Positions 1,594 through 64,000 of a DNA stretch of 64,000 nt are shown here, piece after piece (position 1 is the stretch's first letter; every line of letters starts with the position of its first letter). The stretch covers positions 200,853 to 264,852 of the forward strand of contig CAWATZ010000006.1 of NCBI GenBank assembly GCA_963784995.1, read 5' to 3'. Origin of the DNA: an uncultured Planctomycetota bacterium. GTDB lineage: Bacteria; Planctomycetota; Planctomycetia; Gemmatales; Gemmataceae. The notes beneath the pieces are model-generated. The model did not search any database. It was given only the letters and a program-made list of their open reading frames with translations, and was not told the origin of the DNA. The position numbers were made by a program, and so were the translations under genes.

Positions 1594-3154
1594 ATGCCTG
1601 GCCTTTCGATCCGTCTGAGTCTGTGTCTGACCTGCCTCGCCGCGTTGCCGGCAGCCCACGCCGCCGACCCGACCGACCCTCGGCAACTGGCCGCCCGCAT
1701 CGACCGCCGCCTCGCCAACCGCTGGGAAGCAGCCGGCGTGAAGCCGGCCGACCGCAGCGACGATGCCGAGTTTCTCCGCCGCCTCTCGCTCGACCTCACC
1801 GGCAAGATCCCTTCCGTCGCCGAGGTTCGCCGCTTCCTGGCCGACCGCGCACCCGACAAGCGAGCCGTCCTCGTCGAGCGAATGCTCGCCGGTCCCGGTT
1901 ACGTCACGCACTCCGCCGGGACCTGGCGTCGGCTGCTCGTTCCCGACAGCCGAAAATCAAGTCGGCCGCGAGGCAGCCGTACTCGCACTGGAGAAATGGC
2001 TCCAGAAGCAATTCGCCGACAACGTCGGCCTCGACCGGCTGGCCCGCGAGCTGCTCACCTTCTCGCTGGACGAAACCCGGCCCGGCCGGGTCGATCCCGC
2101 CGAGCCGTCGCCGCGGATGTTCTACGCCGGCCGGGAGGAGAAGCCCGACGAACTGGCCGCGTCGATGACGCGCCTGTTCCTGGGCGTCCGGCTGGAGTGC
2201 GCCCAGTGCCACGATCACCCCTTCGTTCGCTGGAAACGGCAGGACTTCTGGAGCCAGGCCGCCTTCTTCACCAGCCTCCGCCGTCCCGCGGCAGCGACCC
2301 GCGCATTGACCATCCCCGGCACGGAACGCACCGTCCGGGCCCGGTTCCTCGATGGCCAGGCGCTGCCCGACGGCAAGGGTGATGGCCGGCCCGTCCTTGC
2401 GGATTGGCTAACGAACTCCGAGAACCCGTTCTTCGCCCGGGCCGCCGTCAATCGGCTGTGGGGCCAGTTCTTCGGCGTCGGTCTGGTCGATCCGGTCGAT
2501 GACATGACCGAGGAGAATAAGCCCAGCCATCCCGAACTGCTCGATGAGCTGGCCCGTGCCTTCGTGGTCAATCGCTTTGACCGCAAGGTCGTCATCCGCG
2601 CCATCGTGCTGTCGGACGCTTACCAGCGGAGCAGCGTCCTGAATTTAGCCCCGAAGGGGCGACAGTCAATAGACCAGGGCGTGAGCCCTGGGTTAGGCGC
2701 AGCTCCGCCCGATCCGCGTCTGTTCAGCCGGATGAACGTCAAGAGCCTGACTCCGGAGCAGGTCTACGACAGCCTGATCGAGGCCACCGGCTACCGGGGC
2801 CGGGAGATCGCCCGCCAACGCGCTCAGCTGCTGACGCGCTTCCCAGGCGTCGAACAGGTGCTGGAAGGCCAGACCGGCATCCCGCAGGCCCTGGCCCTGA
2901 TGAACGGCGACCTGCTGACCAGCGCCCTCCGCCTGGACGGCGACAACACCCTCAGCGCCGTCGTCAACAGCCCGTTCCTGGACACGGCCGGACAGGTCGA
3001 GACGCTGTTCCTGGCCGCACTCGGCCGGCCGCCTCGTCCCGGGGAAAAGGCTCGCATGGTTGCCCACGTCGAGAAGAGTTCCGCGAAAGGCATCGCCCTG
3101 AGCGACGTCTTCTGGGCCCTGCTCAACAGCGCCGAGTTCGTCCATAACCACTGA
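1594..3154 (+). CDS. Secreted DUF1549 (PSCyt2) / DUF1553 (PSD1) protein with an apparent +1 frameshift near 1935-1950
   Basis: A signal peptide and the RRLSLDLTGKIPS...DKRAVLVERML motif are in frame 1. The PSD1 part (CAQCHDHPF...) continues in frame 2 from about 1940. Confidence 0.6.
2647..2692. repeat. Solo arm of the family-C palindromic element, inside the PSD1 coding region with the frame kept open
   Basis: 45/46 identity to arm 2 of the palindrome at 37998-38043 (agccccgaaggggcgacagtcaatagaccagggcgtgagccctggg). Read through as ...LNLAPKGRQSIDQGVSPG.... Confidence 0.6.
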
Positions 3155-3162
3155 GGAACGCC

Positions 3163-4443
3163 ATGACCGCCTCCAACCGGCATCCTTCGCGCAGAGACTT
3201 CCTGCGGCTGACCACGGCCGGCCTGGCCGGCGTGTCACTTTCCGCGTGGTTCTCCGCCCTGGCCGCCGACCCCCAACGGAAACGCTCGTGCATCCTGCTG
3301 TGGATGGCGGGCGGTCCTTCCCAGATGGACACGTTCGACCTCAAGCCCGGACACAAGAACGGCGGGCCGATCCAGGAGATCGCGACCAGCGTTCCCGGCA
3401 CCCGCATTAGCGAGAATCTGCCGCAGGTCGCCGCCCAGATGAAGTACCTGGCGATCGTCCGCTCGATGCACACCAAGGAAGGCGACCACGGCCGGGCGAC
3501 GTATCACCTGCGCACCGGCTATCCGCGGCAGGGACCGATCCACTACCCGGCCCTGGGCGCTCTGGTGTCCCACGAAATCGGCACGGCGGGAGCGGAGCTG
3601 CCGAACTTCGTCAGCATTGCCTCCGGGCGCGACAGAAACCCCGCAGCTTCCGGGCCGGGCTTTCTCGGTCCGCAGCATGCCCCGCTCGTCGTCGGAGGCG
3701 GCAGCGACAACCTGCAAGTGCAGGACCTGCGGCGCGGCGCGGGCGTCGGCGAGGCCCAGGCCGAGGCGCGCATCGACCTGCTCCGGGGACTGGAGAACGA
3801 CTTCGTCGAGAAGCATCCCGACCCCGGCCCGCAGGGGCATCAGGCGTCGTATGAGCGAGCCGTCCGCCTGATGAAACCGGACGCCGCCCGCGCCTTTTCC
3901 CTTGAGGAGGAGAAGTCGGCCCTGCGCGACCGCTACGGCCGGAACCGCTTCGGCCAGAGCTGCCTGCTGGCCCGCCGGCTCATTGAGCGCGGCGTGCCCT
4001 TCGTGGAGGTCAGCCTTGGCGGCTGGGACACGCACTTCCAGAACTTCCCTGCCGTCCGTCGGCTGTGCGAGACGCTGGACCCGGCCTGGGCGACGCTGCT
4101 GACCGACCTGGAGCAGCGCGGCCTGCTGGACACGACCCTGGTGGTGTGGATGGGCGAGTTCGGCCGGACGCCGCAGATCAACGGCCAGGTGGGACGCGAT
4201 CACTTCCCGGCCGCGTGGACGACGGTGCTGGGCGGAGGCGGCATTGCGGGCGGCCAGGTCGTCGGCCGGACCAGCGCCGACGGCGTCACGGTGGAGGATC
4301 GGCCGGTCTCGGTCCCCGACTTCATGGCGACCATCTGCCGGGCGATGGGACTCGACCCGGCCAAACAGAACCGCTCCAACGTCGGCCGGCCCATCCGCCT
4401 CGCCGACGCCGGAGCCACGCCGATCAAGGAGGTCCTCCGGTGA
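3163..4443 (+). CDS. DUF1501 family protein with a Tat signal
   Basis: RRDFLRLTTAGLAG twin-arginine motif. Conserved DUF1501 body. It lies immediately downstream of the PSCyt2/PSD1 gene, the usual Planctomycete pairing. Confidence 0.85.
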   Translation: MTASNRHPSRRDFLRLTTAGLAGVSLSAWFSALAADPQRKRSCILLWMAGGPSQMDTFDLKPGHKNGGPIQEIATSVPGTRISENLPQVAAQMKYLAIVRSMHTKEGDHGRATYHLRTGYPRQGPIHYPALGALVSHEIGTAGAELPNFVSIASGRDRNPAASGPGFLGPQHAPLVVGGGSDNLQVQDLRRGAGVGEAQAEARIDLLRGLENDFVEKHPDPGPQGHQASYERAVRLMKPDAARAFSLEEEKSALRDRYGRNRFGQSCLLARRLIERGVPFVEVSLGGWDTHFQNFPAVRRLCETLDPAWATLLTDLEQRGLLDTTLVVWMGEFGRTPQINGQVGRDHFPAAWTTVLGGGGIAGGQVVGRTSADGVTVEDRPVSVPDFMATICRAMGLDPAKQNRSNVGRPIRLADAGATPIKEVLR

Positions 4444-7267: not shown

Positions 7268-9050
7268 ATGTCAAAACAACACCGATTCCCGTTCTTGGGC
7301 CTGCTGACACTGATCTGGTTGGGGTGGGGGCTGACCAGCACCGCCGCCGAACCCCTTCCCTCGCTCGACGATCTGTTGCGAGAGTATCAAACGCTTGGCT
7401 TGCCGGTGCCGCCCAGGAAAGCCAAACTGGTGCGGTACGAGGCCGGAGGAGGCGGGATCGTTGACCGCAAAGTCCAGCCCAAGGTCTATGGTCTGGCTTT
7501 CGAGGTCAAACAGGGAACCAAAACAGAGCATCCTTTTCTTCTCCGTGGCACTCTCGAGTGGCAGCCGAGGTGGGACCCTCACACCCGCGAAGTGGACCCG
7601 GAGCCAGCTGCCATCAAGGACCTTGTTGTGGGCCCGTCTGACAGGCTGGTTCTGGCCATCCAGTGTCATGAACGCGGCTGGCACAAGCTAGCCACCCATC
7701 TGCTGGAGAGGAGCCACAAAAAGTGCAAACAGCCACTGCGGAATCCATTGCTTCCGCTAGCGTGGTCCTACTGGGAAGACCATCTGACCACGCCGAAGAT
7801 CGACCGTGCCCCCATTGCCAAAAGGCTGAAAGAGCTTATCCGGCAGGACAAAGAACTGGACACGGAAAGCAACCGGGCGCTGCTCCGGTCGCTGGATCTC
7901 GCTCTCGTGCCCAGTAAGGCCAAACCGGGGAGCATCCAGGCGATGATCGACGACCTTGTCGATTACGACGCCGACACGGGAACCATGGGGTTTTTCAGGC
8001 GGGAGGATCGCTACTGGCGCATTGCCAGGCTGGGTTTTGACGCCGTGCCCGCTCTGATCGAACACCTGGACGACGACCGTCTGACACGAGCCAGGATGAT
8101 TGGTTTCCACAACTTCGGCTCCTGGAACCTTCGTGTTCAGGACGTTGTCAGCGACCTGTTGGAGGATCTGGCGGGGCAGAACGTTGGAAGGAATTGGCTG
8201 CGGCGTCAGCAGGGCTTTGCCGTCCAGAAGGCCGAGGCCCAAAAGTGGTGGGAGCAAGCCCGCAAGGTTGGCGAGGAAACCTACCTGCTGGATCACGTCT
8301 TGCCCGCTAAAGCCAAGGAAGGCGGTCGTGACCAGGTCGAGCGCTCACCTGGTGGAATTGATTCTGTTCAAGTATCCAAAGCACGTACCTTCTCTCTACC
8401 GGAAGGTCCTCGACGTGCGTCCCGAACTGGACAGCTCGATGCTGGCAGACGCCGTCCTCCAGTGCAAACTCCCGGACAAGGATAAACTGGATCAGTTTCT
8501 GTACGCTGCCAACCGCAAAGACCTCAATCACCGCCTGCCAGCTTTCTACGCCATCAAGGACCTGGACAAGAAGCGATTCACCTCGCTCTGGCTTGCCACC
8601 GTCGAAGCTTTCCCGAAGGACGTTCCGGGGCCCTACTGGAAATGTCCCCAAGCTGACATCGCCAGCATGGCGATCGAAGCCGATGACCCCCGCGTCTGGC
8701 AGACCCTGGAGAGAGTCGCCAAACGCTCTGCCCTCGGCTTGCGGATGGAGTTGCTGCGTTCAGTCGGTGCGCCAGGAGACAAGCGGCATCGGCTGGAGCG
8801 GCTCCGTCTCCTGGCATGTTTCCTGGATGATGCGACCTTGCGGGACGAGGATTCCAGCAGCAAGTTTGCCGGGCCAGGCGCCGGGTTCCCCTACCACAAG
8901 ATTGAGGTAAGAGATTTCGTGGCACTGGAGATCGCGCAATTGCTGGGGAACGACGTCGAATGGAACCTGGAACGAACTCCGGAACAATGGGCGAAAATCC
9001 GCAGTCAGGTTCAGGAGGCATTGAAGCGCGAATTCAGCAAGACGAAGTAG
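7268..9050 (+). CDS. Hypothetical secreted protein, probably one gene with an apparent frameshift near 8315-8335
   Basis: Signal peptide at 7268. Protein-like sequence switches from frame 2 (ORF 7268-8485) to frame 3 (ORF 8100-9050) around the codons PAKAKE|VVTRSSAHLVELILFKYPKH. Confidence 0.4.
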
Positions 9051-13157: not shown

Positions 13158-13887
13158 ATGCCGCTTCGCAACCATTTCCGCGCCTCCGGTGTCTAAACGT
13201 GCCTCATGGGAAGGGTTTCACGTTCAGTGGCCCGCCATGATCGTCCAGCACTTGAGCTTCGTCTTGCCCGACGGCTACGTGGCTGAACCGCGCGTCCATC
13301 TCGGTCCCTACTTCGAGATAGTGACGGCGTTCGAGCGCGCGCAGCCACAGACCGCGACCGCAGCCGCTGGGGATGGCGGCGTTGCCACTGTCGCCTGGAG
13401 CGCGACGCAGCCGCTCCTGGACGTCGAGGCTGATTGGCCGGACCAATACGAGTACGAAGTGCTCGTCTTCGACCAGGAACGCGACCGGCGTCTGGTGGCG
13501 GCGGTGGAGCTGGTCAGTCCAGCGAACAAAGACCGGCCGGAATCGCGGCGGGCCTTGGTGACCAGGTGCGCTGCCCTCCTGCGCCAGGGGGTCGGCGTCG
13601 CCCTCGTGGACCTGGTGACGGTCCGCCGGTTCAACCTCTATGCCGAGCTGCTCGAATGGATCGGGCAAAACGACCCAGCACTGGGGGAGGAGCCCCCGGC
13701 GACTTATGCCGCTGCGCTGCGGTTTCAGAAGCCCGCGCAGCGCACGCATTTGCAAACTTGGGCGTATCCCCTGGTCATCGGCCAGCCGTTGCCGACGCTG
13801 CCGCTCTGGTTGTCGGCTGACCGCAGTATACCCCTGGACTTGGAGGCGAGCTACGAGGACACGTGCCGCCTGCTGCGGATCGCGTGA
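13158..13887 (+). CDS. DUF4058 family protein (PD-(D/E)XK-like fold), copy 1; apparent frameshift at about 13190 right after the start
   Basis: ATG 13158 encodes MPLRNHFRAS, matching the paralog's MPLRDHFRPP, then hits a stop. The body continues in the next frame from GTG 13189. Motif LVSPANKDRPESRR...GVGVALVDLVT. Confidence 0.6.
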
Positions 13888-19372: not shown

Positions 19373-19467
19373 ACTCCTCGGAAACTGCGAGCGAACCGGG
19401 CCCGCGGATGGTACAGTATACCTCCGGCGCCGGCCTGGCCAGCGATCCGATCCGGAGGTTTCGACTC

Positions 19468-47826: not shown

Positions 47827-47839
47827 ACTGCGTTCGTCC

Positions 47840-47915: not shown

Positions 47916-47946
47916 AGAAAGAAAATCGTCCTTCGGAGGATAAGAT

Positions 47947-48219
47947 ATGTCCGTGAAGGTTCAGATTCCCACCCCGATGCGGCAGCACACCGAGGGCAAG
48001 ACCACCGTCGAGGCCCAGGGCAGCACGGTCCAGGCGGTGCTCGCCGACCTGGGAGCGAAGTATCCCGCCCTCACCGGCCGGCTGTTCGACAACGGCCAGC
48101 TGCGCCGGTTCATCAACCTGTTCCTCAACAACGAGGACATCCGTTACCTGTCCAACCTGGAAACGCCCGTCAAGGACGGCGACGAGCTGGCCATCATTCC
48201 CGCGGTCGCTGGAGGTTGA
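47947..48219 (+). CDS. MoaD/ThiS-family sulfur-carrier protein ending in Gly-Gly
   Basis: 90 aa, beta-grasp-like, C-terminal ...IIPAVAGG-stop. Confidence 0.7.
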   Translation: MSVKVQIPTPMRQHTEGKTTVEAQGSTVQAVLADLGAKYPALTGRLFDNGQLRRFINLFLNNEDIRYLSNLETPVKDGDELAIIPAVAGG

Positions 48220-48220
48220 C

Positions 48221-48571
48221 ATGGCGGACGAGGACGACGCCGGCCTGCCGGCGCCGGATGCCCAGGTGCCGGAAGGGGCGGCGGTCTTTCCCGAGATCCC
48301 CGAGGAGCTGGGCGTCGATCCCCTGTTCCTGGCCATGCTGCATGCCACCGTCTTCCTGGCCGGCTCGACCGAGGAGGTCGTCAACGGCGAGGCCGCCGAC
48401 GAGGCGGTGCAGGCGATGGCCGGGTATCTGCGGCGGCTGACGGGGAAGGAGCTGGCCCGGGTGCGCGAGGACCTGGAGTGTCTGGTGGGTTACGCCCGGC
48501 AATGCGAGTGGCCACGGGAGATGGTGCGCTTCCTCAAGAGCTTCCTGGCCGACTACGGCATCAGCCGTTAG
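48221..48571 (+). CDS. Hypothetical acidic protein (not JAMM-like)
   Basis: ORF begins 1 nt after the MoaD-like stop. No HxH or other metalloprotease motif. Confidence 0.4.
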   Translation: MADEDDAGLPAPDAQVPEGAAVFPEIPEELGVDPLFLAMLHATVFLAGSTEEVVNGEAADEAVQAMAGYLRRLTGKELARVREDLECLVGYARQCEWPREMVRFLKSFLADYGISR

Positions 48572-48658
48572 CCCGACGCGCCAGCGAGGGAGAGGACAAA
48601 ACCCTCGCTGGCGCGTCGGGCTAACGGCCGACTACGGCATCAGCACGGGAGAGACGAA

Positions 48659-49699: not shown

Positions 49700-50839
49700 T
49701 GCGGTCCCGCCACCGTTTGCCACCAATGTTCCGCCATGCCCAGTGACAGCGTCATGCCGGTCCCGCCCGTGGCCGTCATGATCGTCACTCCTCGGTCGCG
49801 GCTGGGCCGTGAACACCGGCAAGCTCGGGTGCTTGCCATACAGGCCGTGCCAGCGGCCAGCAATCGTCCAGTCGGGCAACTGCACCATCCCACGCAGATA
49901 GTCCAGGATCAGCTGATCGATCTCGGTCTTGTCAAACGGCTCGATCGCCTCGTCGTACTCGTGGGAATCGCCGATGACGACCTCCCCCAGATGATTCTGG
50001 GATGCCATGACGTGGATGCCGTGACGGACGAACTGCGGCAACTCCTCCTCGATGCGTTGCCGCAGCCGGGGCAGCGACGGACAGACGCGGAATGTCGGAT
50101 AGTGGCACAGCGTCAGCCCGCTGGCCAGGTGTGGGCCGAGAGTCCAGCCGGCCGGCTGCGGCACCGTGCGCATCATCTGCAGCTTGCAGCGGCGGATGCC
50201 CGAGCCGGCAAATACTTCGGGAAACAGCGTCTGGAAGTCGATACCGCCGGCCACGATCACCTGTTCCGCCTGCCAGGTGCGACCGTCCGCGGCGTGGACG
50301 TGCGGTGGGTCCACGGCCGTCACCGTCGTGCCGAAATGCACTTCCACCGGGTAGGTCCGGCTCAGGTACTCGGGAATGGTCGCGATCGCCTGGCGTGGAT
50401 CGACGCACAGCTCGGTCGGACTCCAGAGGGCCCCGAGCAATCCGTCGGGACGCACGGCCGGCGACCGGCGGAGCGTTTCCGCGAGGGTCAGCAGCTGGCA
50501 GTCAAAACCCAGGCCGGCGGATTGGCTGACGAACTCCTCCAGCACTGCCAGCTCGTCGTCCCGGTAAGCCAGGTGCAAGGAACCACAAGCGTTGATCCAG
50601 AAGCCCGCCTGCCGGGCCAGTTCCAGCCACAGCTCCCGGCTGCGCAGGGCCCGCTGGTGCATCTCGCCGGGAGTCTGGCCGATGGGCCAGATCATGCCGA
50701 AGTTGCGGATGGACGCCCCCCGCGGCCTGGGGTCGCGGTCAAACAGGCCGACCGAAAGCCCACGCCGGGCGGCCGACAAGGCATGGGCCAAACCCACGAT
50801 GCCGCCGCCGACCACCGCCACGTCCCGTTGTCGCCGCAT
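49696..50839 (-). CDS. FAD-dependent oxidoreductase (DAO family, TIGR03364-like); apparent frameshift near 49790-49805 removes the native C-terminus
   Basis: DVAVVGGGIVGLAHAL...SIRNFGMIWPIGQ. The native tail ...TGGTGMTLSLGMAEHWW is in the adjacent frame (ORF 49696-49893). Confidence 0.6.
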
Positions 50840-51032
50840 CTGTTTTCTCTTCCTGGTCCTCGATCGTTCCTTTGTGACAGCGTAGGGAACCACTGCCAGG
50901 GACGCCAGCGTTCATCGCTGGCATGGTCATTCTTTCGGCGGTCTTGTGCCCACCCCTTGCAAATCGCCTCCCGACCGGAGAAGATAACTCCAGCTTGCCC
51001 TGATTGACCCGACCCGAAGCTGGACTTCTCAA

Positions 51033-52155: not shown

Positions 52156-52266
52156 CCACAGAGGACACAGAGGACACAGAGAAAACCATCCCATGCGCGA
52201 CTCCAGGCTTCCTTTTTTCCTCTCCCTCGTCTTCCTATCTTCTCTGTGTCCTCTGTGCCTCTGTGG
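52156..52266. promoter_or_regulatory. 27/28-bp inverted repeat bracketing the RBS, start codon and signal-peptide codons of the downstream dehydrogenase gene
   Basis: ccacagaggacacagaggacacagagaa (52156-52183) versus ttctctgtgtcctctgtgcctctgtgg (52240-52266), 1 mismatch. The right arm encodes SLCPLCLCG. Confidence 0.55.
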
Positions 52267-55154
52267 TGAATCCTCTGGCCTGCGGCTGCCGGAGGGGTTC
52301 GAGGTGGTCGAGTGGGCCGACAGCAGCCTGGCCAACGACATTTACTGCCTCACCGTCGGCCCGTCCGGGCAGGTGGTCGTCTCGGGGCGCGGCTACGTCC
52401 GGCAGCTGGTCGATGAGAAAGGGGCCGGCAAGGCGACCCGGGCCCTGGACTTTGCCGAGGCACCGCGTGACGGGGCGATGGGCCTGTGCTGGGACGGCGA
52501 CGACCTGTACTGCATGGGCGACGGTGGTTTGCGGCGGTATCGCCAGGCCGGCGGCGCGGGACGCACCAGACCGTCCGAGCTGCTGTATCCGTTCAAAACC
52601 GGCGGCGAACACAGCGCCCACGCCATCCTCCGCGGCCCGGACGGCTGGTTGTACGTCATCGGCGGCGACGGCACGGGCATCTCACGGAAGGAAGCGAGCC
52701 TGCCGACCTCGCCGATCAAGGAACCCATCGGCGGTGGCGTGGTTCGCTTCACCCCGGACTTTCGCGGCAGCGAGATCGTCGCCGACGGCTTCCGCAACGC
52801 CTACGGCATGGACTTCAACCCCGACGGCGAGCTGTTCACTTTCGACAGTGACAACGAACGCTGTGTCTCGCTGCCGTGGTACGAGCAGTGCCGCTTCTAC
52901 CACGTTGCTGCGGGGAGCCATCATGGCTGGCAGGCCCATCAGCACGCCCAGACCTGGCGGCAGCCGCCGTATTTCCTCGACGTCACTCCGCCCGTGGCCC
53001 ACTTGGAGCGCGGCTCGCCGACCGGTGTGGTCTGCTATCGGCATACACAGTTCCCGCCGCATTACCGGGGCGGCTTGTTCCTGCTCGACTGGACTTTTGG
53101 CCGGGTGTGGTTCCTGAAGCTGGAACGAGCCGGCAGTTCCTACACCGCTCAGCGTGAAGTGTTCCTGCAAGCCACCGGTGAGGACGGCTTCGCCCCCACG
53201 GCGGCTGCCGTCGATCCGCGCAACGGCGATCTGTACCTGAGCATCGGCGGCCGGGGCACTCGCGGTGCCGTGTATCGGATTCGCTATCCGCAAGGGGCAA
53301 AGTCGATCACGGCTGAGGGCGTGGCCCGGCTCCAGCCCGCACGGCGCATCCTGGACTGGAAGCCGGACCTGGCGGCCGTCACGGATCGAGAAGGCGACCG
53401 CCGGCAATCCAGGCGAGCGGCTGGAAGCACTGCAATGGCTGCTGCGCCACCGTGAACGGCTGGAGGCGAGCCAGGCGGAGCAGGCGGTCGAGACCAACCT
53501 GAAGCAAACCGACCGCTTGCTGCGTCAGGCAACCGCGCGGCTGCTGGCGAGCATGCCTCCGGAAAAGCAGCAGCAACTGAGCCTCCGAGCGAAGAAGCCC
53601 GAGGCACGGCTGACGGTGGGCCTGGCCCAGCACGGCGCCGTCCTGCTGGACCTGATCGCGGATTCGCGTCTTGCCCCACGGCTCCGCCTGGACGCCGTGC
53701 GCCTGCTCCAGTTGCATCTGGGCGACATTGGTGACAAGTCATCCAAGGGCACACTCTGGGAGGGCTACAGCCGGCGGCAGCCGAAGCCCGAGAGCAGCCC
53801 GGCGATGTGCCAGGCCCTGCGCGACAGCTTCCCTTCGGGACATGCCGATCTGGACCGCGAATTGCTCCGGACACTGGCTCTGCTCCAGGACGACAACCCG
53901 GACCTGCCGCCACACTTGACCGCCCGCTTGACCGAGGCGTCCCATCCAACTGACGATTTCCACGTCCTGACCGTGCTGGCCCGGCTGCGCGGCGGCTTTT
54001 CCGACGCGGTGGTCCGGCAGACCGCCCATGCTCTGCTGCGGCTCGACGCCAAGGTGATGGCTCGCAAGATGAACCGCGAACGCAACTGGGACGATCGCCT
54101 GCGGGAGCTGGTCGCGGCCCTGGTCCGCAAGGAGCCGAAGCTGCCACTCGCCCTGCTGGACGACAACGAGTTCGGCCGGGCCGACCACGTCTGTTTCGTG
54201 GAATCGCTCCGGACCGGACGCGACCGGGCGGCCGAGAAGTTCCTGGCGACGGCCCAGCGCGAGCCGAACTTTGCCTGGAATGCCGGCCTGATTGGACTGG
54301 TGGGTGAGTTGCCCGAGGAGCGCTCCTTGCCAATCCTGCGGAAGCTCTGGGGCCAGGCCGGGCAGGACGAGGCGATCCTGGAAGTGCTGGCGCGGAAGCC
54401 CCGTCTCGCCGACCGGGACCGGTTTGTCGAGAGCCTGAAGTCGGGCCGGATGCAAACGATCGCCGCCGCCGTGCAATCGCTGGCGTCGCTAAAGGTCAAG
54501 CTGACGCGGGACGAGGTGCTGGCCCTGGTGCTGGCCCTGCGCGGCCTGCCGCCAGGCAAGGAGGGCGAGCCGATCCGCAAGCACGTTCTGCCGCTGCTCA
54601 AGGCGCAGACGGACCAGGGCCTGCCCGACGCCGATGCCTGGAGCAAGTGGGTCGCCCGCACCTGGCCCGACTTTGCCCCACGGGTCCGCAACCTCGACGG
54701 CGTCGATGAAGGGGCCTGGGAGCGGCGGCTGGCGGGCATCGACTGGAGCCAGGGAACCAGCGAGGCCGGTCGGCAGGTGTTCGTCCGGGCGCAGTGCAGC
54801 AGCTGTCACTCGGGGTCTCAGGCCCTCGGCCCGGACCTCAAGGGCGTGTCCGGCCGCTTCTCGCGGGCCGACCTGTTCACCGCCATCCTCCAGCCGAGCA
54901 AGGAGGTGCCGCCGCGCTACCGCACCACGCTGCTGACCACCACCGCGGGCAAGACCTACCAGGGGATGATCGTCTACGAGGCGCTCGACAGCCTGATCCT
55001 GCAAACGGGGCCGCTAACCACGGTGCGCGTGACCGAGACGCAGATCAGCGAACGCCAGCCAAGTACGCGGTCGCTGATGCCGGCAGGCCTGCTCGACCGG
55101 CTCAGCGACCGGGAGATTGCCGATCTGTATGCGTATTTGAAGGGGTTGAAGTGA
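52193..55154 (+). CDS. PVC-type membrane-bound dehydrogenase-domain / HEAT / cytochrome c (CxxCH) protein, paralog 2; apparent frameshift near 53385-53400
   Basis: Same architecture as 14903-18064. C-terminal CSSCHSG heme motif. The frame switches from 2 to 3 between ORF 52049-53455 and ORF 53265-55154. Confidence 0.65.
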
Positions 55155-55297: not shown

Positions 55298-57800
55298 ATG
55301 CGAATCGTGTCGTGGGTCGTGTCTGCCATTCTTCTCGGTGTTGTGGCGACTGCTGCGCCAGGTCAGCCCGGGATACCTCTGCTCCCAAACCCAAAGTTCG
55401 TGCCGGCGCCTGAGGCCCCTCGCGCCTCTATCTTGGGCGCTCACGCTGCCGTGAACCCTGCCCCGGTCGTCACGGACGAACAGAAGCTGCGGGGTGCTGG
55501 CCTGCGCGTCGATGGCCCGTCCCTGGTGGAGTTCTTTCGGCAACGTGCTTCGCAGGCCACGGACCCCGAAGAGATTAACCCCTGGATCAAGCGCCTGGTG
55601 GATGAGGATGTCGCGGTCCGCTCCCGGGCGGCACGAGTGTTACTGGGCCGCGGCGCTGCCGCGTTGCCTCTGCTGCGGCGGGCGGCCAACGACCTGGGCA
55701 ACCCCGAACTGGCAAGCCAGGCCCAGCGCTGCCTGCGGTTGATCGAAGGAGAAGGCACAACGGTTGTGCCGGCCGCTGCCGTACGCCTGCTGGTCCAGCG
55801 CAAGCCAGCCGGGGCCGTGGAAGCGCTGCTGGACTACCTGCCGGCGGCGGAGACTCCCGCCCTTATCGAGGAAGTGGCCAGCGCCTTGACCGCTCTGGCG
55901 TATCCCAACGACAAGCCGCACTCCGCCTTGCTCGAAGCGCTGACCGACGCCGTGCCGCTGCGTCGTGCGGTGGCCGGCAGCGTCCTGGCCGGCAAGGACC
56001 ACCCCCAGGCACGGCCGTACGTCCGCAAGCTGCTGCGTGATCCCAGGCCGCTGGTGCGGCTGCGTATCGGGCTGGCCCTGGCTGAAGCCAACGACCTGGA
56101 CGGAGTGCCCGTGCTCATCGAGTTGCTGGCCGAGGCGCCTGCCCCGCAGCACAAGCCCATCGAGGAGCTGCTGCGTCGTCTGGCAGGCGAATGGGCGCCG
56201 ACCACGCCACAAGGCGACGATGAGGTTGCCCGCCGCATTCGTCGTGGCGCCTGGGCCAGCTGGTGGCGCGAGAGCGACGGCCCGGCTCTGCTGGCCCAGC
56301 TGCGGCGGCATACGCTCAGCACCAAGGACCAGGCCAGGGTCCAGGCGCTCGATCGAGAAGCTGGGAGACGACGACTTTGAGGTGCGGCAGAACGCCTCGG
56401 GCGAACTGACCGAGTTTGGTGCGCTGGCCGTGCCGCTGCTGCGTGAAGCCAGCCACAGCACGGACGCGGAACGGGCCCGCCGAGCCGAGGAGTGTCTCAA
56501 GGACATTGCCGACAAGGGTGGCAAACCTCTGCCGGAACCTGTCTTGCGGCTGCTGAGCGTGCGCAAGCCAGCCGGGGCCGTGGAGGCGATCCTCGACTAT
56601 CTGCCCTTTGCCGACACTGAGCAGAGGAGAGAAGAGGCACGGACGGCCCTGGCGGTCCTGGCGGTGCGTGAGGGTCGGTTGGAGCCGGCGTTGCTGCGGG
56701 CGCTGGAAGATCCGCTGCCGCTGCGGCGGCTGACCGCCGCGGAGGCCATCCTGGCGGCGAGCCCCCTGGAGCAGCGGGACGCCGTGCGCAAGCTGCTGCG
56801 TGACAGCGACCCGCTGGTGCGGCTGCGTACCGCCGTGGCCCTGGCCGTCAAGCGTGATCGGGAAGCGATCCCGGTGCTGATCGAGTCGCTAGCCGAGGAA
56901 CCCTCCGACGCCAGCGGCGATGCGGAGGAAATCCTGTACCGCCTGGCCGGAGAAAATGGACCGAAGACGTTGCCGGTCAGCGGCACCGCCGACCGCCGCC
57001 AGCGCCGCGATGCCTGGGCGGCTTGGTGGAAGGCGTCCGGTTCGTCGGTCGATCTGGCCGTGCTTGAGAACCACACGCGCTTGCTGGGGTATACACTTCT
57101 GATAAGTTCGGCGGCCGGTCGGGTGCTAGAACTGGGCCGGGACGGCAAGCCGCGCTGGGTCATTGCCGGGCTGGCGAATCCGTTGGATGCCGTCATTCTG
57201 TCCGGTGACCGCGTGCTGATCGCGGAATACACCGGCAAGCGTGTGACCGAACGCGATTTCCAGGGCAAGATCCTCTGGCAAAAGGACGGGCTGGGAGCCG
57301 ATCCGGTCAACGTGCAGCGTCTGGCCAACGGCAACACCTTTATCGCCACGGAGAAGGAGTTGCTTGAGGTCGATCGCGCCGGCAAGACGGTCTGGAGCCA
57401 GTCTTTTCCGAACCTCATGGCAGCGTCCAGATCTCGGGATGGCAGCATCACGTGCCTGGACCAGGCTGGCCAGTGTGTTCGGCTCTCCTCTGACGGCAAG
57501 GAACTGAAGCGGTTTCCTTCCGGAGACAAGGCAGTTTATCACGGCTGCCTCGAAGTGACGGCCAACGGCCGGATCTTGATCGCGCAGCACAATGAGAACA
57601 GGGTAATAGAAATGGACGCCGAAGGCAGAGTTCTCTGGCAAGCCGCGGCACCGAAAATTGCCAGAGCCACGCCTATGCCCAACGGGCACGTACTGGTCGC
57701 CAGCTGCGACAATCAGCTGGTGACCGAACTGGATCGAGCCGGAAAGGTCGTTTGGGAATACAAGACCGGCATGCCGGTCTCGCGAGCCCGGCGGCGCTGA
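55298..57800 (+). CDS. Secreted HEAT-repeat + beta-propeller protein, tandem paralog A; single-base frameshift (extra g at about 56351)
   Basis: Collinear with intact paralog B. The frame breaks at ...QARVQAL|IEKLGDDDFEVRQNASG. Confidence 0.6.
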
Positions 57801-57872: not shown

Positions 57873-60359
57873 ATGCGCAACGTAGTGCGGCTGGTGTTCG
57901 CCCTCGTTCTTTTCTGCGTGGCTTCCACGGCGTTTGGCCGGCAGCCGGGCGATCTTCCCAGAGCCCGAGTCGTTCCCGTGGGGCCTTCGTCAGCGGCCCC
58001 GGCTGCTGGGGATTCCGGCTCTCCCGCCCAGGACGAAGAGAGACTCCGGACCGCGGGGCTGCGCGTCGATGGGCCGTCCCTGGTGGAGTTCTTGCGGCAG
58101 CGGGCTCAACTGGAGACCGACCCCGACGGGCTCAACGCCTGGATCAGGCGGCTGAATGACGCTGATCCGGGAGTCCGCTCGCGTGCCGCGCGCACCTTGC
58201 TGGGTCGCGGCAAGGCGGCGCTGCCCCTGCTGCATCGCGCGGCCAACGATCTGGGCGACCCCGAACTGGCTGGCCGGGCGCAGCACTGTATCGAGGTCAT
58301 CGAATGGCAAGGTAGCACCTTGCCGGCCGCGGCCGCACGGCTGCTGGCCCATCACAAACCGGCCGGGGCGGTGGAAGCGCTGCTGGCCTATCTGCCCGCC
58401 GCCGAGACTCCTGCCCTCGTCGAGGAAGTGGCCAGCGCCCTCACGGCCCTGGCTTATCCGGACGACAAACCGCACGCCGCTTTGCTCGCAGCGCTCACCG
58501 ACGCCGTGCCGCTGCGTCGCGCCGTGGCCGGCAGCGCACTGGCCGGCAAGGATCATCCCCAAGCACGACCAGCCGTTCGCAAGCTGCTGCGTGATCCCAG
58601 GCCGCTGGTCCGTCTCCGTGTCGCGCTGGCCCTGGCCGAGGCCAACGACCTCGAAGGCGTGCCCGTTCTGATTGATCTGCTGGCAGAGGTTGTGCCGCCG
58701 CGGGACAAGCCCATCGAGGAACTGCTGCGGCGGCTGGCGGGCGAATGGGCGCCGACGCCGCCGGCCGGAGACGATGCGGTCGCCCGGCGGATTCGCCGGG
58801 ACAGCTGGGCCGTCTGGTGGCGCGACAGCGATGGCCCCGCCCTGCTGGCCGAAGTGCGCAGCCACACCCTGAGCGGCAAGGACCAGGCCCGGGTGCTGGA
58901 CCTGATCGACAAACTGGGCGCCGACGACTTCGAGATGCGGCAGAATGCTTCCGGCGCGTTGACCGAGTTCGGGGCCCGGGCCGTGCCGCTGCTGCGGGAA
59001 GCCACGCACAGTCCCGATGCGGAACGGGCACGGCGGGCCGAAACGTGTCTGCAGGAGATTGCCGACAAGGGCGGCAAACCCTTGCCGGAACCCGTGTTGC
59101 GGCTGCTGAGGGTGCGCAAACCGGCCGGCGCGGTGGAGGCGTTGCTGGCTTATCTGCCCTTTGCCGACAACGAGCAACGAAGTGAGGAGGTGCGCCAGAC
59201 GCTGGCGTCCCTGGCGGTGCGTGAGGGCCAGCTGGAACCAGCCTTGTCGCGGGCGCTGGAAGATCCACTGCCGCTGCGGCGGCTGGCCGCTGCCGAGGCC
59301 ATCCTGGCAGCGGGAGCCCTGGAGCAACGGGACGCCGTGCGCAAACTGCTGCGTGACGGTGATCCGCTGGTGCGGCTGCGGACCGCCCTGGCCCTGGCCG
59401 TCAAGCGTGATCGGGAAGCGATCCCGGTGCTGATCGAGTCGCTGGCCGAGGAACCCTCCGACGCCAGCAGCGAAGCGGAGGAAATCCTGTATCGCCTGGC
59501 CGGCGAGGGCGGGCCGAAGGTCGAGCCGGCCGGCGACACAGCCGGTCGGCATCAGCGCCGTGACGCCTGGGCGGCCTGGTGGAAGGCGTCCGGTTCGTCG
59601 GTCGATCTGGCCGTGCTGGAGAACCACGTGCGCCAACTGGGGTACACGCTCCTGGCAATGGGGGAAAGTGAAAAGGATGGTCAGGTGCTGGAACTGGGCC
59701 GGGACGGCAAGCCGCGCTGGATCATTACCGGGCTGGCGGCTCCAGTAGACGCCTACGTCCTTCCCGGCGATCGCGTGCTGATCGCGGAATACCTCCTCAA
59801 GCGTGTGACCGAACGCGATTTCAAGGGCAACATCCTCTGGCAGCGAAACCTGGGCACCCATCCGGTCAACGCGCAGCGTCTGGCCAATGGCAACACCTTC
59901 ATCGCCACGGACAACGAGTTGCTCGAGGTCGATCGCGCCGGCAAGACCGTCTGGAGTCAGGCTTTCTCGAACCTTCCGGCGGCGTACAAATCCCGGGATG
60001 GCAGCATCACTTGCCTGGACGGCAGTGGCCAGTGTGTTCGCCTCTCCTCGGCCGGCAAGGAACTGAAGCGGTTTCCTTCTGGAACCTCCGAAGTGAGCGT
60101 CGGTGGCATCGACGTGCTGGCCAATGGCCGGATCTTGATCGCGCAGCGCAAGGAGAACCGGGTAGTGGAACTGGACGCCGAAGGCAAAGTCCTCTGGCAA
60201 ACCGCCGCGCCGGGAAGTTTCTCGGCCACACGCCTGCCCAACGGGCATACGCTCGTTGCCAGCACCGACAACAAGATAGTGACCGAACTGGACCGGGCCG
60301 GAAAGGTCGTCTGGGAACACAAGGCGGGGATGGAGGTCTTCCGAGCGCGACGGCGCTGA
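57873..60359 (+). CDS. Secreted HEAT-repeat + beta-propeller protein, tandem paralog B (intact)
   Basis: Signal peptide. Two internally duplicated HEAT modules (PAGAVEALLAYLP..., DPLVRLR.ALALA...). C-terminal 4-6-blade propeller (ANGNTFIAT..., DGSITCLD...). Confidence 0.75.
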   Translation: MRNVVRLVFALVLFCVASTAFGRQPGDLPRARVVPVGPSSAAPAAGDSGSPAQDEERLRTAGLRVDGPSLVEFLRQRAQLETDPDGLNAWIRRLNDADPGVRSRAARTLLGRGKAALPLLHRAANDLGDPELAGRAQHCIEVIEWQGSTLPAAAARLLAHHKPAGAVEALLAYLPAAETPALVEEVASALTALAYPDDKPHAALLAALTDAVPLRRAVAGSALAGKDHPQARPAVRKLLRDPRPLVRLRVALALAEANDLEGVPVLIDLLAEVVPPRDKPIEELLRRLAGEWAPTPPAGDDAVARRIRRDSWAVWWRDSDGPALLAEVRSHTLSGKDQARVLDLIDKLGADDFEMRQNASGALTEFGARAVPLLREATHSPDAERARRAETCLQEIADKGGKPLPEPVLRLLRVRKPAGAVEALLAYLPFADNEQRSEEVRQTLASLAVREGQLEPALSRALEDPLPLRRLAAAEAILAAGALEQRDAVRKLLRDGDPLVRLRTALALAVKRDREAIPVLIESLAEEPSDASSEAEEILYRLAGEGGPKVEPAGDTAGRHQRRDAWAAWWKASGSSVDLAVLENHVRQLGYTLLAMGESEKDGQVLELGRDGKPRWIITGLAAPVDAYVLPGDRVLIAEYLLKRVTERDFKGNILWQRNLGTHPVNAQRLANGNTFIATDNELLEVDRAGKTVWSQAFSNLPAAYKSRDGSITCLDGSGQCVRLSSAGKELKRFPSGTSEVSVGGIDVLANGRILIAQRKENRVVELDAEGKVLWQTAAPGSFSATRLPNGHTLVASTDNKIVTELDRAGKVVWEHKAGMEVFRARRR

Positions 60360-60437: not shown

Positions 60438-62924
60438 ATGCGCAGCGTATCGCGGTTGACGTTCGCCCTCGTTCTTTTCTGCGTGGCTTCCGCGGCGTTT
60501 GGCCGGCAGCCGGGCGATCTTCCCAAAGGCCGAGTCGTTCCCCTGGGGCCTTCGTCAGCGGCCCCGTCTGCCGGGGATTCCGGCTCTCCCGCCCAGGACG
60601 AAGAGAGACTCCGGACCGCGGGGCTGCGCGTCGATGGGCCGTCCCTGGTGGAGTTCTTGCGGCAGCGGGCTCAACTGGAGACCGACCCCGACGGGCTCAA
60701 CGCCTGGATCAGGCGGCTGAATGACGCTGATCCGGGAGTCCGCTCGCGTGCCGCGCGCACCTTGCTGGGTCGCGGCAAGGCGGCGCTGCCCCTGCTGCAT
60801 CGCGCGGCCAACGATCTGGGCGACCCCGAACTGGCTGGCCGGGCGCAGCACTGTATCGAGGTCATCGAATGGCGAGGCAGCGCCGTTGCCGGCCGCGGCC
60901 GCACGGCTGCTGGCCCATCACAAGCCTGCCGGGGCGGTGGAAGCGCTGCTGGCCTACCTGCCCGCCGCCGAGACTCCTGCCCTCGTGGAGGAAGTGGCCC
61001 GCGCCCTCACGGCCCTGGCTTATCCGGACGACAAACCGCACGCCGCCTTGCTCGCCGCGTTGACCGACGCCTTGCCGCTGCGTCGCGCCGTGGCCGGCAG
61101 CGCCCTGGCCGGCAAGGATCATCCCCAGGCACGACCAGCCGTTCGCAAGCTGCTGCGCGATCCCAGGCCGCTGGTGCGTCTGCGTGTCGCCCTGGCCCTG
61201 GCCGAGGCCAATGACCTCGAAGGGGTGCCCGTTCTGATTGATCTGCTGACTGAGGTTGCGCCGCCGCGGGACAAGCCCATCGAGGACCTGCTGCGGCGGC
61301 TGGCGGGCGAATGGACGCCGACGCCGCCGGCCGGAGACGATGCGGTCGCCCGGCGGATTCGCCGCGACAGCTGGGCCGTCTGGTGGCGCGACAGCGATGG
61401 CCCCGCCCTGCTGGCCGAAGTGCGCAGCCACACCCTGAGCGGCAAGGACCAGGCCCGGGTGCTGGACCTGATCGACAAACTGGGCGCCGACGACTTCGAG
61501 ATGCGGCAGAATGCTTCCGGCGCGTTGACCGAGTTCGGGGCCCGGGCCGTGCCGCTGCTGCGTCAAGCCAGGCACAGTCCCGATGCGGAACGGGCAAAGC
61601 GTGCGGAAGAGTGTCTGAAGGATATTGCCGACAGGGGCAGCAAACCCTTGCCGGAACCCGTGTTGCGGCTGCTGAGGGTGCGCAAGCCTGCCGGGGCCGT
61701 GGAGGCGTTGCTGGATTATCTGCCTTTTGCCGACAACGAGCAACGAAAAGATGAGGCTCGCAAGGCGCTGGTGGCTCTGGCGGTGCGTGAAGGCCGGCTG
61801 GACCCCGCCTTGTCGCGGGTGCTGGAAGATCCGCTGCCGCTGCGGCGGCTGGCCGCTGCCGAGGCCATCCTGGCAGCGAGTCCCCTGGAGCAGCGGGATG
61901 CCGTGCGCAAGCTGCTGCGGGACGCTGATCCGCTGGTGCGGCTGCGTACCGCCGTGGCCCTGGCCGTCAAGCGTGATCGGGAAGCGATCCCGGTGCTGAT
62001 CGAGTCGCTGGCCGAGGAACCCTCCGACGCCAGCGGCGAAGCGGAGGAACTCCTGTCCCGTCTGGCCGGCGAGGGCGCGCCGAAGGTCGAGCCGACCGGG
62101 GGCACGGCCGGTCGCCGCCAGCGCCGTGACGCCTGGGCCGGCCTGGTGGAAGGAGTCCGGTTCGTCGGTCGATCTGGCCGTGCTGGAGAACCACACGCGC
62201 CTGCTGGGGTACACCCTCCTGGCAATGGGAGGAAAAGGATGGTCAGGTGCTGGAACTGGGCCGGGACGGCAAGCCGCGCTGGATCATTACCGGGCTGGCG
62301 ATTCCGGTAGACGCCCACGTCCTTCCCGGCAACCGTGTGCTGATTGCCGAGATCCAGGGCAAGCGTGTAACCGAACGCGATTTCCAGGGCAAGATCCTCT
62401 GGCAAAAGGAGAGGCTGGAAGCCAGGCCGGTCAACGCGCAGCGTCTGGCCAATGGCAACACCTTTATTGCCACGGAGGCCGGGTTGCTTGAGGTCGATCG
62501 AACCGGCAAGACCATCTGGAGTCAGGCTTTTCCGAACCTCATGGCAGCGTACAAATCCCGGGATGGCAGCATCACCTGCTTTGACAAAGCTGGCCAGTGT
62601 GTTCGCCTCTCCTCGGCCGGCAAGGAGCTGAAGCGGTTTCCTTCGGGAAGCTCCGACTTGAGAGTTGGTGGCATTGACGTGACGGCCAATGGCCGGATCT
62701 TGATCGCGCAGCGCAAGGAGAACAGGGTGTCGGAACTGAACGCCGAAGGCAAAGTCCTTTGGCAAGCCGCCGCGCCGGGAATTTTCTCGGCCACACGCGT
62801 GCCCAACGGACATACGCTCGTTGCTGGCCGCGATACCAAGCTGGTGACCGAACTGGACCGGGCCGGAAAGGCCGTCTGGGAACACAAGGTGGAGAAGGAG
62901 GTCTTTCGGGCGCGGCGGCGCTGA
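60438..62924 (+). pseudogene. HEAT + beta-propeller tandem paralog C with at least 3 indels relative to B (+1 at about 60883, +1 at about 62137, -5 at about 62230)
   Basis: Spread over three frames (ORFs 60402-61214, 60721-62310, 62247-62924). Nucleotide alignment to B pinpoints the indels. Confidence 0.6.
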
Positions 62925-63002
62925 CCGGCCTGTCCGTTCCCCTTGGCGGGGGTTACGATCATCCTTGAGGAAACCCTTCCATACCTGACCAGGAGTGCTT
63001 CC

Positions 63003-64000
63003 ATGCGCAGCGTATCGTGGCTGGTGTTGGCGATCCTTCTTTTCCTGCGGGGCTGCCGCGGCGCTTGGCCGACAGCCGGGTGATCTTCCCAAAACCCGAG
63101 TCGTCTCTGTGGGATCCTCGCCCGCCCTGCCAGCCGGGGATTCCAGTTCCCCCAGCCAGGACGAAGAGAAACTCCGGACGGCGGGCCTGCGTGTCGATGG
63201 CCCGTCCCTGGTGGAGTTCTTTCGGCAACGGGCCCAACTGCAAGCCGACCCGGAAGAGCTCAACACCTGGATCAGGCGTCTGAATGACGCGGACCCGGAA
63301 GTCCGTTCTCGTGCCGCAGGCAAGTTGCTGGGCCGAGGCACGGCGGCCTTGCCCCTGCTGCGTCGCGCGGCCAACGACCTGGGCGACCCCGAACTGGCTG
63401 ACCGGGCCCGGCACTGCATCGAGCTGATCGACAGGCACGGCACGACGACCGTGACAACGGCCGCGGCCGTTCGCCTGCTGGTCCAGCAGAAACCGGCCGG
63501 GGCCGTGGAAGCGCTGCTGGCCTATCTTGCCGGCTGCCGAGACTCCCGCTCTTGTGGAGGAAGTGGCCCGGGCCCTGACCGCAATGGCTTATCCTGACGA
63601 GAAACCGCATGCCGCCTTGCTCGCAGCGCTCACGGATGCCTTACCGCTGCGCCGTGCCGTGGCCGGTTGGGCCCTGGCCGGCAAGGACCATCCCGAAGCC
63701 CGGCCGTACGTCCGCAAGCTGCTGCGCGATCCCAAACCGCTGGTGCGTCTCCGCGTCGCCCTGGCCCTGGCCGAGGCCAACGACCTCGAAGGAGTGCCCG
63801 TTCTGATTGATCTGCTCGCCGAAGTTCCACCTCCGCGGCACAAGGCCATCGAGGAGCTGCTGGGCCGGCTGGCGGGCGAATGGGCACCGACTGCACCACA
63901 AGGCGACGATGCGGTTGCCCGCCGGATTCGTCGTGGTGCCTGGGCCAGCTGGTGGCGCGAGAGCGACGGCCCGGCTCTGCTGGCCCAGGTACGTCGGCAC
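63003..64000 (+). CDS. HEAT + beta-propeller tandem paralog D (partial, runs off the window end); at least 2 single-base frameshifts (about 63045-63070 and about 63530)
   Basis: Collinear with B from MRSVSWLVLAILLF. Each break is a +1 insertion relative to B. Confidence 0.5.

Follow-up and report, generated by a model that had tools for sequence, protein, structure and literature searches.

The 64,000-nt stretch of Gemmataceae DNA analysed here (the window) carries many interrupted reading frames in otherwise conserved genes, which raises the question of whether these genes are dying or whether the deposited sequence is at fault. An earlier note, made from the letters alone, had listed 13 single-base breaks, each with protein-like sequence continuing in an adjacent frame, and had named long-read indel error as the likeliest cause. 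All 13 breaks are indeed present in the deposited sequence and each was confirmed by comparison with a paralog or a full-length homolog. We consider it probable, at roughly four in five, that they are consensus indel errors of a long-read metagenome contig, and among the explanations weighed below this one is best supported, namely by the gap between long-read and short-read relatives, by the lack of other signs of decay and by the type of contig.

Thirteen single-base breaks interrupt nine genes

Positions of the breaks were refined by alignment to homologs and paralogs and lie within ~15 nt of the earlier coordinates, except for the first, which is bracketed only. The remaining 12 of the 13 sites are located to within a few nucleotides or less, and at these a single-base edit restores a protein that is collinear with its homologs. 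The breaks affect nine of the ~44 genes in the window (~20%), and full-length single-frame homologs are abundant for all nine. Removal of one nucleotide per site yields full-length proteins with no internal stops, as seen for HEAT-propeller paralogs A, C and D and for the C45-like, FAD oxidoreductase, dehydrogenase paralog 2 and 7268-9050 genes described below. A codon-usage Viterbi decoder independently recovered 10 of the 13 breaks. As to their kind, 12 are +1 nt changes and one is a -1 change, that is a G missing from a GGGG run at position 19019. This bias in direction departs from a 50:50 expectation (binomial p=0.0017).

The insertions in paralogs A, C and D had been described as lying in G/C runs. 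A single extra nucleotide in G+C-rich surroundings was found in each case, but the homopolymer part of the claim did not hold: none of the 11 insertions that can be placed falls within a run of three or more bases, the longest run after insertion being two, and the description is therefore wrong. A run of at least three bases is present at only one of the 13 breaks, the deletion in the G4 run at 19019, whereas the insertions sit in G+C-rich sequence outside homopolymers. An apparent rule by which every insertion would be a G placed between two codons was discarded, as it depends on how the junctions are parsed; under their most parsimonious reading, G, C, T and A all occur among the inserted bases. 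A motif-specific process was likewise rejected. Of the shared sequences, GATCGAGAAG is found at two breaks as well as once between genes, and GCGAGGCAGC at two breaks, a degree of sharing that is unremarkable upon resampling (P=0.15), and GCCGGC, found near three breaks, occurs every 350 nt.

Broken single genes outside the HEAT-propeller array

The PSCyt2/PSD1 (DUF1549/DUF1553) gene (1594..3154, plus strand) carries a +1 break between 1944 and 1988. Homologs from the related loci L029, L012 and L020 span both frames, their match to frame 1 ending at 1941-1944 and that to frame 2 starting at 1988, and the Viterbi path switches at 1925. In agreement, Pfam places the N-terminal part of PSCyt2 in the upstream frame, and PSCyt2 profile positions 97-208 together with PSD1 in the downstream frame only. 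A conserved hypothetical gene of a ~600-aa family (7268..9050, plus strand) contains one extra nucleotide at 8339 (GTC[G]AGC). Its fused protein has the full-length homologs P0121 (72% identity, 100% coverage) and P0122, and residues 356|357 of the latter correspond to nt 8338|8340, close to a switch in codon-position GC at ~8330. The 405-aa protein P0129, encoded on a contig of 1,441,126 bp, is identical to the ORF 7268-8485 of the window, down to the out-of-frame tail. DUF4058 copy 1 (13158..13887, plus strand) has one extra nucleotide at ~13182 (CGC[G]CCT). Here, MPLRNHFR is followed in the next frame by PPVSKRASWEGF, in agreement with copy 2 (13993-14808) and with the homolog from locus L003; the succession of MPLRNHFR and PPVSKRASWEG agrees with both.

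On the minus strand, the C45/AAT-like (isopenicillin-N acyltransferase-like) gene with its TAT signal (18161..19363) combines the 1-nt deletion at 19019 (CGG(G)GC) with a 1-nt insertion at ~18641-18645. The homolog P0241 delimits both: the end of its residue 112 and the start of residue 113 fall on nt 19019, while 18645 is the last nucleotide of residue 237 and 18640 the first of residue 239. The fused protein of 401 aa matches homologs of ~400 aa with up to 76% identity and 100% coverage. The FAD-dependent oxidoreductase of the DAO family (49696..50842, minus strand) contains one extra nucleotide at 49792 (CCG[A]GGA). When corrected, its 380-aa product aligns end-to-end with homologs of ~380 aa (residues 4-379 with 5-380 of P0361), and its C-terminus corresponds to DAO profile positions 263-348. 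At the junction, EPLP|GVTV of P0364 maps over 49793|49791 with residues P and G contiguous. The corrected stop codon adjoins that of the convergent ThiF gene, whereas the uncorrected ORF overlaps ThiF by 200 nt. Finally, paralog 2 of the DUF7133-HEAT-cytochrome c 'membrane-bound dehydrogenase-like' proteins (52193..55154, plus strand) has one extra nucleotide at ~53384 (ACG[G]ATC). The fused protein finds hundreds of homologs of ~1000 aa at 97-100% coverage, the best of which (P0001, 77% identity) aligns across the junction without a gap, and both halves are matched by dehydrogenase paralog 1 (14903-18064).

The HEAT-propeller array and selection on its broken copies

The array of HEAT + beta-propeller genes on the plus strand holds six of the 13 breaks within 8.7 kb. 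Paralog B (57873..60359) is intact and served as template for the other copies; its one ORF encodes 828 aa that include HEAT_2 and PQQ_2-like propeller domains. In paralog A (55298..57800), tblastn with B passes from frame 2 to frame 3 at 56341/56352, and the DNA alignment and the translations agree on one extra nucleotide at 56349/56350 (CT[C]GATC). Its correction gives 834 aa with no internal stops. Paralog C (60438..62924) has extra nucleotides at 60885, 62138 and 62231 and runs through frames 3, 1, 2 and again 3, as seen by tblastn, alignment and translations alike; without these three bases it encodes 828 aa, free of internal stops and ~92% identical to B. The break at 62231 appears as -5 relative to B, which resolves into an in-frame length difference of 6 nt in a variable linker plus one extra nucleotide. 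Paralog D (63003..64000), cut by the window end, has extra nucleotides at 63044 (TTC[C]TGC) and 63527 (CT[T]G), and the 332 aa of its corrected window part contain no stops.

The broken copies show no relaxed selection. Values of dN/dS are 0.29 for A-B and 0.24 for B-D, the range for A and D being 0.24-0.31, and the comparisons involving broken copies (A-B, B-D and the C branch) span 0.24-0.35. Nonsynonymous and synonymous changes number 22/24 on the branch of C, which carries three breaks, as compared to 31/28 on the branch of intact B; neutrality would predict ~73% nonsynonymous changes. Frameshifted C is thus no more relaxed than intact B. Neither nonsense codons nor larger out-of-frame deletions were found in the corrected copies or in the homolog alignments of the broken genes.

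Frame breaks are clustered in the window and common in long-read relatives

The breaks are spread unevenly. A density of one per 5 kb had been quoted, but a stretch of 30.8 kb rich in housekeeping genes (19.0-49.8 kb) contains none, which is longer than expected for a maximal gap (p=0.0026). Within this central block (19408..49699) the Viterbi path shows ordinary gene boundaries only and the Pfam domains are complete; its genes encode an amino-acid permease, XPB helicase, a Ser/Thr kinase with WD40 repeats, a 7TM-HD protein, a PALP enzyme, ThiS and ThiF and include purA, uppS, cdsA and phoH. At the level of genes, the concentration of 13 breaks in at most nine distinct genes is not significant (p=0.11).

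To compare related Gemmataceae loci, the Viterbi decoder was used as a proxy for frame switches in 11 long-read and 35 short-read loci. The former yielded 95 events in 201.5 kb of coding sequence (4.7 per 10 kb), the latter 12 events in 454 kb (0.26 per 10 kb), a ratio of ~18, and the window itself had 10 flagged events in 54.4 kb (1.8 per 10 kb). The gap holds for HEAT-propeller copies (4.27 vs 0.17 per 10 kb) and for other genes (4.89 vs 0.32 per 10 kb) alike. Homology-based frame switches were seen in L003, L010, L014, L017, L021 and L022, while short-read arrays of up to six copies are single-frame, with three events in 174 kb; a switch in this family may be present in the short-read contig L058 and possibly in L049. 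The comparison with related genomes for which the earlier note had called supports its reading, since long-read relatives are frameshifted likewise and short-read relatives almost never. Long-read loci also lean towards +1 (65:30), although the 12:1 bias of the window exceeds this ratio of ~2:1 with borderline significance (p≈0.05), and they too show clusters of events, as in L019 at 3.1-5.5 kb and L066 at 17.2-18.3 kb. The relatives are distant: the closest matches to window proteins have 72-77% protein identity, scans of genomes and metagenomes with paralog B retrieved relatives that are at most 50% identical with little synteny past the array, and the neighbourhood of P0001 has only an FGE-sulfatase + DUF7133 pair in common with the window. 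Two of them, L010 (MFD00731.bin.2.201) and P0001 (ENA ERZ25039590 contig_60125), belong to the Microflora Danica (MFD) Nanopore MAGs.

Origin of the breaks

The source contig of 1,441,126 bp resembles the MFD-LR MAGs in size and in its database signature, NCBI and ENA entries that carry no protein names, and for this reason we infer that it is most probably a Nanopore-only assembly of the Flye + Medaka type without short-read polishing. The MFD-LR MAGs come from Nanopore reads alone, with Flye --meta as assembler followed by a single Medaka round (PMC12313526), and R10.4 bins below 40x coverage require Illumina polishing (PMC9262707). Single-base indels that split conserved genes are what IDEEL-type truncated-protein tests detect in Nanopore-only data (Sereika et al. 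2022, PMC9262707; PMC12313526). Further likenesses to such assemblies are the great length of the metagenome contig, which is presumably unpolished, a density comparable to that of MFD Gemmataceae MAG loci (0.9-10.7 events per 10 kb by the same proxy) and genes that are otherwise undamaged. The window differs in that its breaks are unevenly placed, 12 of the 13 being insertions outside runs of three or more bases, and in that the Nanopore platform is here deduced from the length and database signature of the contig. Homopolymer runs are the textbook context of Nanopore errors, and classic indels of such assemblies are found there. Under the assembly-error reading, the nine genes would most likely be intact single ORFs in the organism, and one spurious base (once, a missing base) would split each of them into two to four pieces in the deposited sequence, the errors being isolated single-base insertions in G+C-rich sequence rather than homopolymer miscalls. 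Their uneven spread, likewise seen in MAG contigs of long-read relatives, might be due to low local coverage or a mixed-strain consensus at variable accessory genes.

A mixed population as the source, in place of errors in raw basecalling, is a variant of the same explanation: co-assembled strains that differ, or near-identical tandem paralogs, may have produced a chimeric consensus whose spurious indels would accumulate in variable accessory genes and in the B/C/D array. The strong clustering of events in the window and in the long-read loci L019 and L066, the enrichment in the array (six breaks in 8.7 kb), the position of the breaks outside homopolymers and the similarity of B and C, which have a dS of 0.13 and are nearly identical over their first 100 codons, are all consistent with it. 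However, in long-read loci the array family has no excess of events over other genes (4.27 vs 4.89 events per 10 kb), and we regard this variant as a tentative one with odds well below even. Of a different nature is the possibility that single-base insertions recently disabled genes that are dispensable or have paralogs, whereas those for housekeeping are preserved by selection. Frameshift pseudogenes occur in reductive genomes such as that of Mycobacterium leprae, and the likeness extends to ORFs disrupted relative to their homologs, repeated breaks per gene, paralogous or dispensable genes as targets and spared housekeeping genes. Among the genes hit would be three HEAT-propeller copies out of four and one member each of the DUF4058 and dehydrogenase pairs, and for several of them the window also contains an intact paralog. 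Real mutations under purifying selection would give the same pattern of six breaks in the 8.7-kb array and none in the 30.8-kb housekeeping block (p=0.0026), and because of this block real pseudogenes at some sites are conceivable. Repeated breaks, as found in C (three), D (two) and the C45-like gene (two), are expected once a gene is dead, but their concentration does not reach significance (p=0.11). The one or two short-read contigs with a possible switch in the family (L058, possibly L049) also point in this direction.

Set against this, the broken genes differ from those of the Mycobacterium leprae type in showing no relaxed selection (dN/dS 0.24-0.35; C constrained like intact B), no nonsense codons and no larger out-of-frame deletions. 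Their lesions, 12 of 13 being +1 and outside homopolymers, are unlike the expected slippage spectrum, in which homopolymers are the main sites and indels are mixed or biased towards deletions. In a large-genome, free-living bacterium, breakage of ~20% of genes would be extreme, and in short-read Gemmataceae switches are ~18-25-fold fewer, both for this family and for the genes next to it. Thus, recent pseudogenes are an unlikely source of the breaks. True decay of the array, as had been suggested, is conceivable for individual sites but disfavoured, since short-read arrays of the family are almost never frameshifted. For the insertions to be real nonetheless, this free-living Gemmataceae lineage would need strongly insertion-biased, non-homopolymer indels, for instance through a polymerase or repair defect, in a burst of pseudogenisation that hit accessory genes and tandem paralogs alone, and so recently that dN/dS is still unchanged, a combination that we judge highly improbable. 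Programmed +1 ribosomal frameshifting, known from the prfB type, or another form of recoding would account for the +1 direction of 12 sites, and at two of them, 53384 and 56351, the exact 10-mer GATCGAGAAG recurs in one and the same phase, the old frame reading CGA, a rare-looking codon. Unlike at prfB, however, the sites lie in many unrelated genes, they have no conserved shift motif in common, the old frame holds no stop codon at the shift site and one site is -1, while the sharing of 10-mers among the sequences around the 13 breaks is no more than resampling produces (P(>=2 pairs)=0.15). Orthologs (60-77% identity) as well as paralog B, DUF4058 copy 2 and dehydrogenase paralog 1 are single-frame at the equivalent positions, and because the shift is not conserved, recoding is effectively refuted.

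Consequences for annotation

If the breaks are assembly errors rather than dying genes, they are a matter of data quality. About 20% of the genes in the window would be annotated as truncated, split or pseudogene, and paralog counts, domain architectures and conclusions on "genome decay" drawn from this MAG would be wrong. As a rule of thumb, Gemmataceae Nanopore-only MAG contigs carry ~18 times the frame switches of short-read contigs. Since the errors are mostly +1 insertions outside homopolymers, homopolymer-aware correction alone would be insufficient.

Two other sites in the window have ordinary explanations. The Viterbi switch at 1295 in a radical-SAM (ArsS-like) gene was considered as a frameshift and instead marks the true start, MTQLTLL. 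An in-frame stop at 33131, considered as a nonsense mutation, separates two adjoining genes in the same frame, each with its own signal peptide. Further, a small glyoxalase-like ORF on the minus strand may contain a 14th break, at ~1478.

Confirmation and placement of the frame breaks

Searching the window by tblastn with the intact HEAT plus beta-propeller paralog B (57873-60359) revealed frame switches in paralogs A (55298-57800), C (60438-62924) and D (63003-64000), at the places reported in the earlier note. A MAFFT DNA alignment and three-frame translations assigned one extra nucleotide to each of the six array sites, that is 56349/50 in A, 60885, 62138 and 62231 in C, and 63044 and 63527 in D. 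The apparent difference of -5 at 62231 arises from one extra base together with an in-frame length change of 6 nt in a variable linker; at this linker position, paralog A differs in frame by 9 nt.

Outside the array, breaks were placed by homologs. Homologs of PSCyt2/PSD1 in the related Gemmataceae loci L029, L012 and L020 match frame 1 as far as 1941-1944 and, from 1988 onwards, frame 2. Gene 7268-9050 contains exactly one extra base at 8339 (residues 356/357 of database homolog P0122 correspond to nt 8338/8340), and homologs of ~600 aa cover the fused protein. In DUF4058 copy 1, the extra base lies at ~13182, where MPLRNHFR plus PPVSKRASWEG align with copy 2 and a homolog from locus L003. 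Comparison of the minus-strand C45/AAT-like gene (18161-19363) with P0241 (76% identical, 100% coverage) showed that one nucleotide is missing from a G run at 19019 and that one is inserted at ~18641-18645. The minus-strand FAD oxidoreductase gene (49696-50842) has an extra base at 49792, as placed by P0364, and its corrected product of 380 aa aligns end to end with ~380-aa homologs. For dehydrogenase paralog 2, a DUF7133-HEAT-cytochrome c gene (52193-55154), gapless alignment with P0001 sets the junction at ~53384, and hundreds of ~1000-aa homologs cover the fused protein. A codon-usage Viterbi decoder trained on the intact window genes independently recovered 10 of the 13 breaks and detected no additional switch within well-scoring coding sequence of the window. 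Thus, all 13 breaks are confirmed. Twelve of them are +1 and one, the deletion at 19019, is -1. The location in G/C runs that the earlier note gave for the array breaks does not hold: of the 11 insertions that could be placed, not one sits within a run of three or more bases.

Frame switches in long-read and short-read relatives

Many Gemmataceae carry the HEAT plus beta-propeller family as tandem arrays with 2-6 copies. We collected 65 related loci by scans with paralog B and one by look-up of P0001. Array copies on contigs from short-read assemblers are almost always single-frame, whereas individual copies in Microflora Danica (MFD) MAGs carry one to three frame switches. All loci of 5 kb or longer were scored with a Viterbi proxy that counts same-strand switches where the upstream frame was open for at least 25 nt. 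The proxy yielded 95 events in 201.5 kb of coding sequence in 11 long-read loci (4.7 per 10 kb; +1:-1 ratio 65:30), as compared to 12 events in 454 kb in 35 short-read loci (0.26 per 10 kb; 9:3) and 10 events in 54.4 kb in the window (1.8 per 10 kb; 9:1). The excess in long-read loci extends beyond the family, with 4.27 events per 10 kb in HEAT-propeller matches and 4.89 in other coding sequence (short-read loci: 0.17 and 0.32, respectively). The same artefact is exemplified by urocanase, a conserved single-copy enzyme, which in the long-read MAG locus L066 (17202-18630; ENA ERZ25039590 contig_60125) is called in small fragments as Urocanase_N (92 aa) and Urocanase_C (123 aa). Therefore, the frame switches track assembly technology rather than gene biology.

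The database protein P0129 shares its full sequence with window ORF 7268-8485, out-of-frame tail included, and is encoded on one contig of 1,441,126 bp, present in NCBI and ENA without a product name; for an uncultured soil-type planctomycete, a 1.44 Mb contig effectively requires long reads. MFD MAG proteins (P0001; P0165/L010) bear the same database signature as P0129. The MFD-LR catalogue rests on Nanopore data alone, assembled with Flye (--meta --nano-hq) followed by a single Medaka round, and its authors noted Nanopore-associated errors in MAGs of lower coverage (PMC12313526). The same group found that R10.4 metagenome bins below ~40x still need Illumina polishing (PMC9262707). We infer that the source contig is of this Nanopore-only kind.

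Sequencing error versus gene decay

Taken together, the breaks are probably long-read indel errors, the cause preferred in the earlier note and an assembly-quality artefact of an already known kind (probability roughly 0.78). Real pseudogenes at some or all sites are unlikely, even though selection on real mutations would be expected to generate uneven placement and a concentration in the array. The breaks are not evenly spaced: none lies between 19,019 and 49,792 (max-gap test, p=0.0026), a block containing housekeeping genes, and the paralog array accounts for six of the 13 within 8.7 kb. However, clustering is equally strong in long-read relatives, where 2.4 kb of locus L019 contain nine events and 1.1 kb of L066 contain seven, and local differences in consensus quality, caused by coverage or strain mixture, could suffice to explain it. 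As for the count of distinct genes hit, it is not significantly low (p=0.11).

Sequence constraint also speaks against decay. Once a single base is removed at each site, no internal stop remains in A (834 aa), C (828 aa) or the portion of D inside the window (332 aa). Nei-Gojobori dN/dS values are 0.29 for A-B, 0.24 for B-D and 0.49 for B-C (dS 0.13). When changes were polarised with A as outgroup, the branch to triple-frameshifted C showed 24 synonymous and 22 nonsynonymous changes and that to intact B 28 and 31, respectively, as compared to ~73% nonsynonymous changes expected under neutral evolution. Thus, C is at least as constrained as B, and its three frameshifts, if real, must be too recent for accompanying neutral substitutions. 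Finally, 12 of the 13 breaks are +1 (p=0.0017 versus 50:50), a bias in the same direction as in the long-read loci and stronger. Such a near-exclusive +1 direction is difficult to square with natural indel spectra, which are either mixed or biased towards deletions and concentrate at homopolymers. Programmed +1 frameshifting was rejected: the sites share no common motif, none of them carries a stop where the frame shifts, and the orthologs and paralogs each read in a single frame.

Three copies of the exact 10-mer GATCGAGAAG are present in the window: two precisely at breaks and in the same phase (53384-53393, dehydrogenase paralog 2; 56351-56360, paralog A), and one in an intergenic region (46434-46443, minus strand). 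Likewise, the PSD1 break has GCGAGGCAGC in common with the first of the three breaks in C. On resampling, neither sharing is significant, and the 10-mer was dismissed as a meaningful signal; a context-specific basecalling error is conceivable for both.

Gene content and further observations

The window (~66% G+C, about 44 genes) has its closest database relatives among Gemmataceae MAGs. It encodes a PSCyt2/PSD1 plus DUF1501 gene pair (1.6-4.4 kb), DUF4058 proteins, DUF7133-HEAT-cytochrome c "dehydrogenase-like" proteins, a Ser/Thr kinase with WD40 repeats, purA, uppS, cdsA, phoH, XPB helicase, ThiS/ThiF and the tandem array of four paralogs (55298-64000). In L029, L012, L036/L037 and L020, the PSCyt2/PSD1 plus DUF1501 pair directly adjoins the array; in the window they are 50 kb apart. 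B and C are very recent duplicates (overall dS 0.13), and their first 100 codons (57873-58170 and 60438-60740) have a dS of 0.026 yet 10 nonsynonymous differences, a sequence pattern suggestive of gene conversion or of a mosaic history.

An XPB/Rad25-type helicase (584 aa) precedes a protein of 745 aa that likewise contains a Helicase_C_3 domain, both intact (25070-29455). A PALP enzyme, ThiS, a 116-aa ORF and ThiF/MoeB form an intact cluster (46531-49699) whose gene content resembles a sulfur-carrier (CysO-type) pathway for cysteine or thiocarboxylate. The convergent FAD oxidoreductase gene, once corrected, has a stop that overlaps the ThiF stop by a few bases. An in-frame stop at 33131-33133 (minus strand) was rejected as a nonsense mutation; it separates two same-frame ORFs for small secreted proteins, both of which have a signal peptide of their own. 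Around a HAD-hydrolase ORF (21600-23300), G+C drops locally to 0.59 and the coding signal is weak; no frame switch was detected there, at low sensitivity, and the segment could be of foreign origin or evolving rapidly. A small minus-strand ORF (1268-1500), located between the genes for the ArsS-like radical SAM protein and PSD1, aligns with the Glyoxalase/VOC profile over positions 1-45 of 121 only (E=1.6e-5), and its likely start (MTVRFHL) is in an adjacent frame. A 14th +1 break at ~1478, truncation to a remnant, or a combination of the two could account for it.
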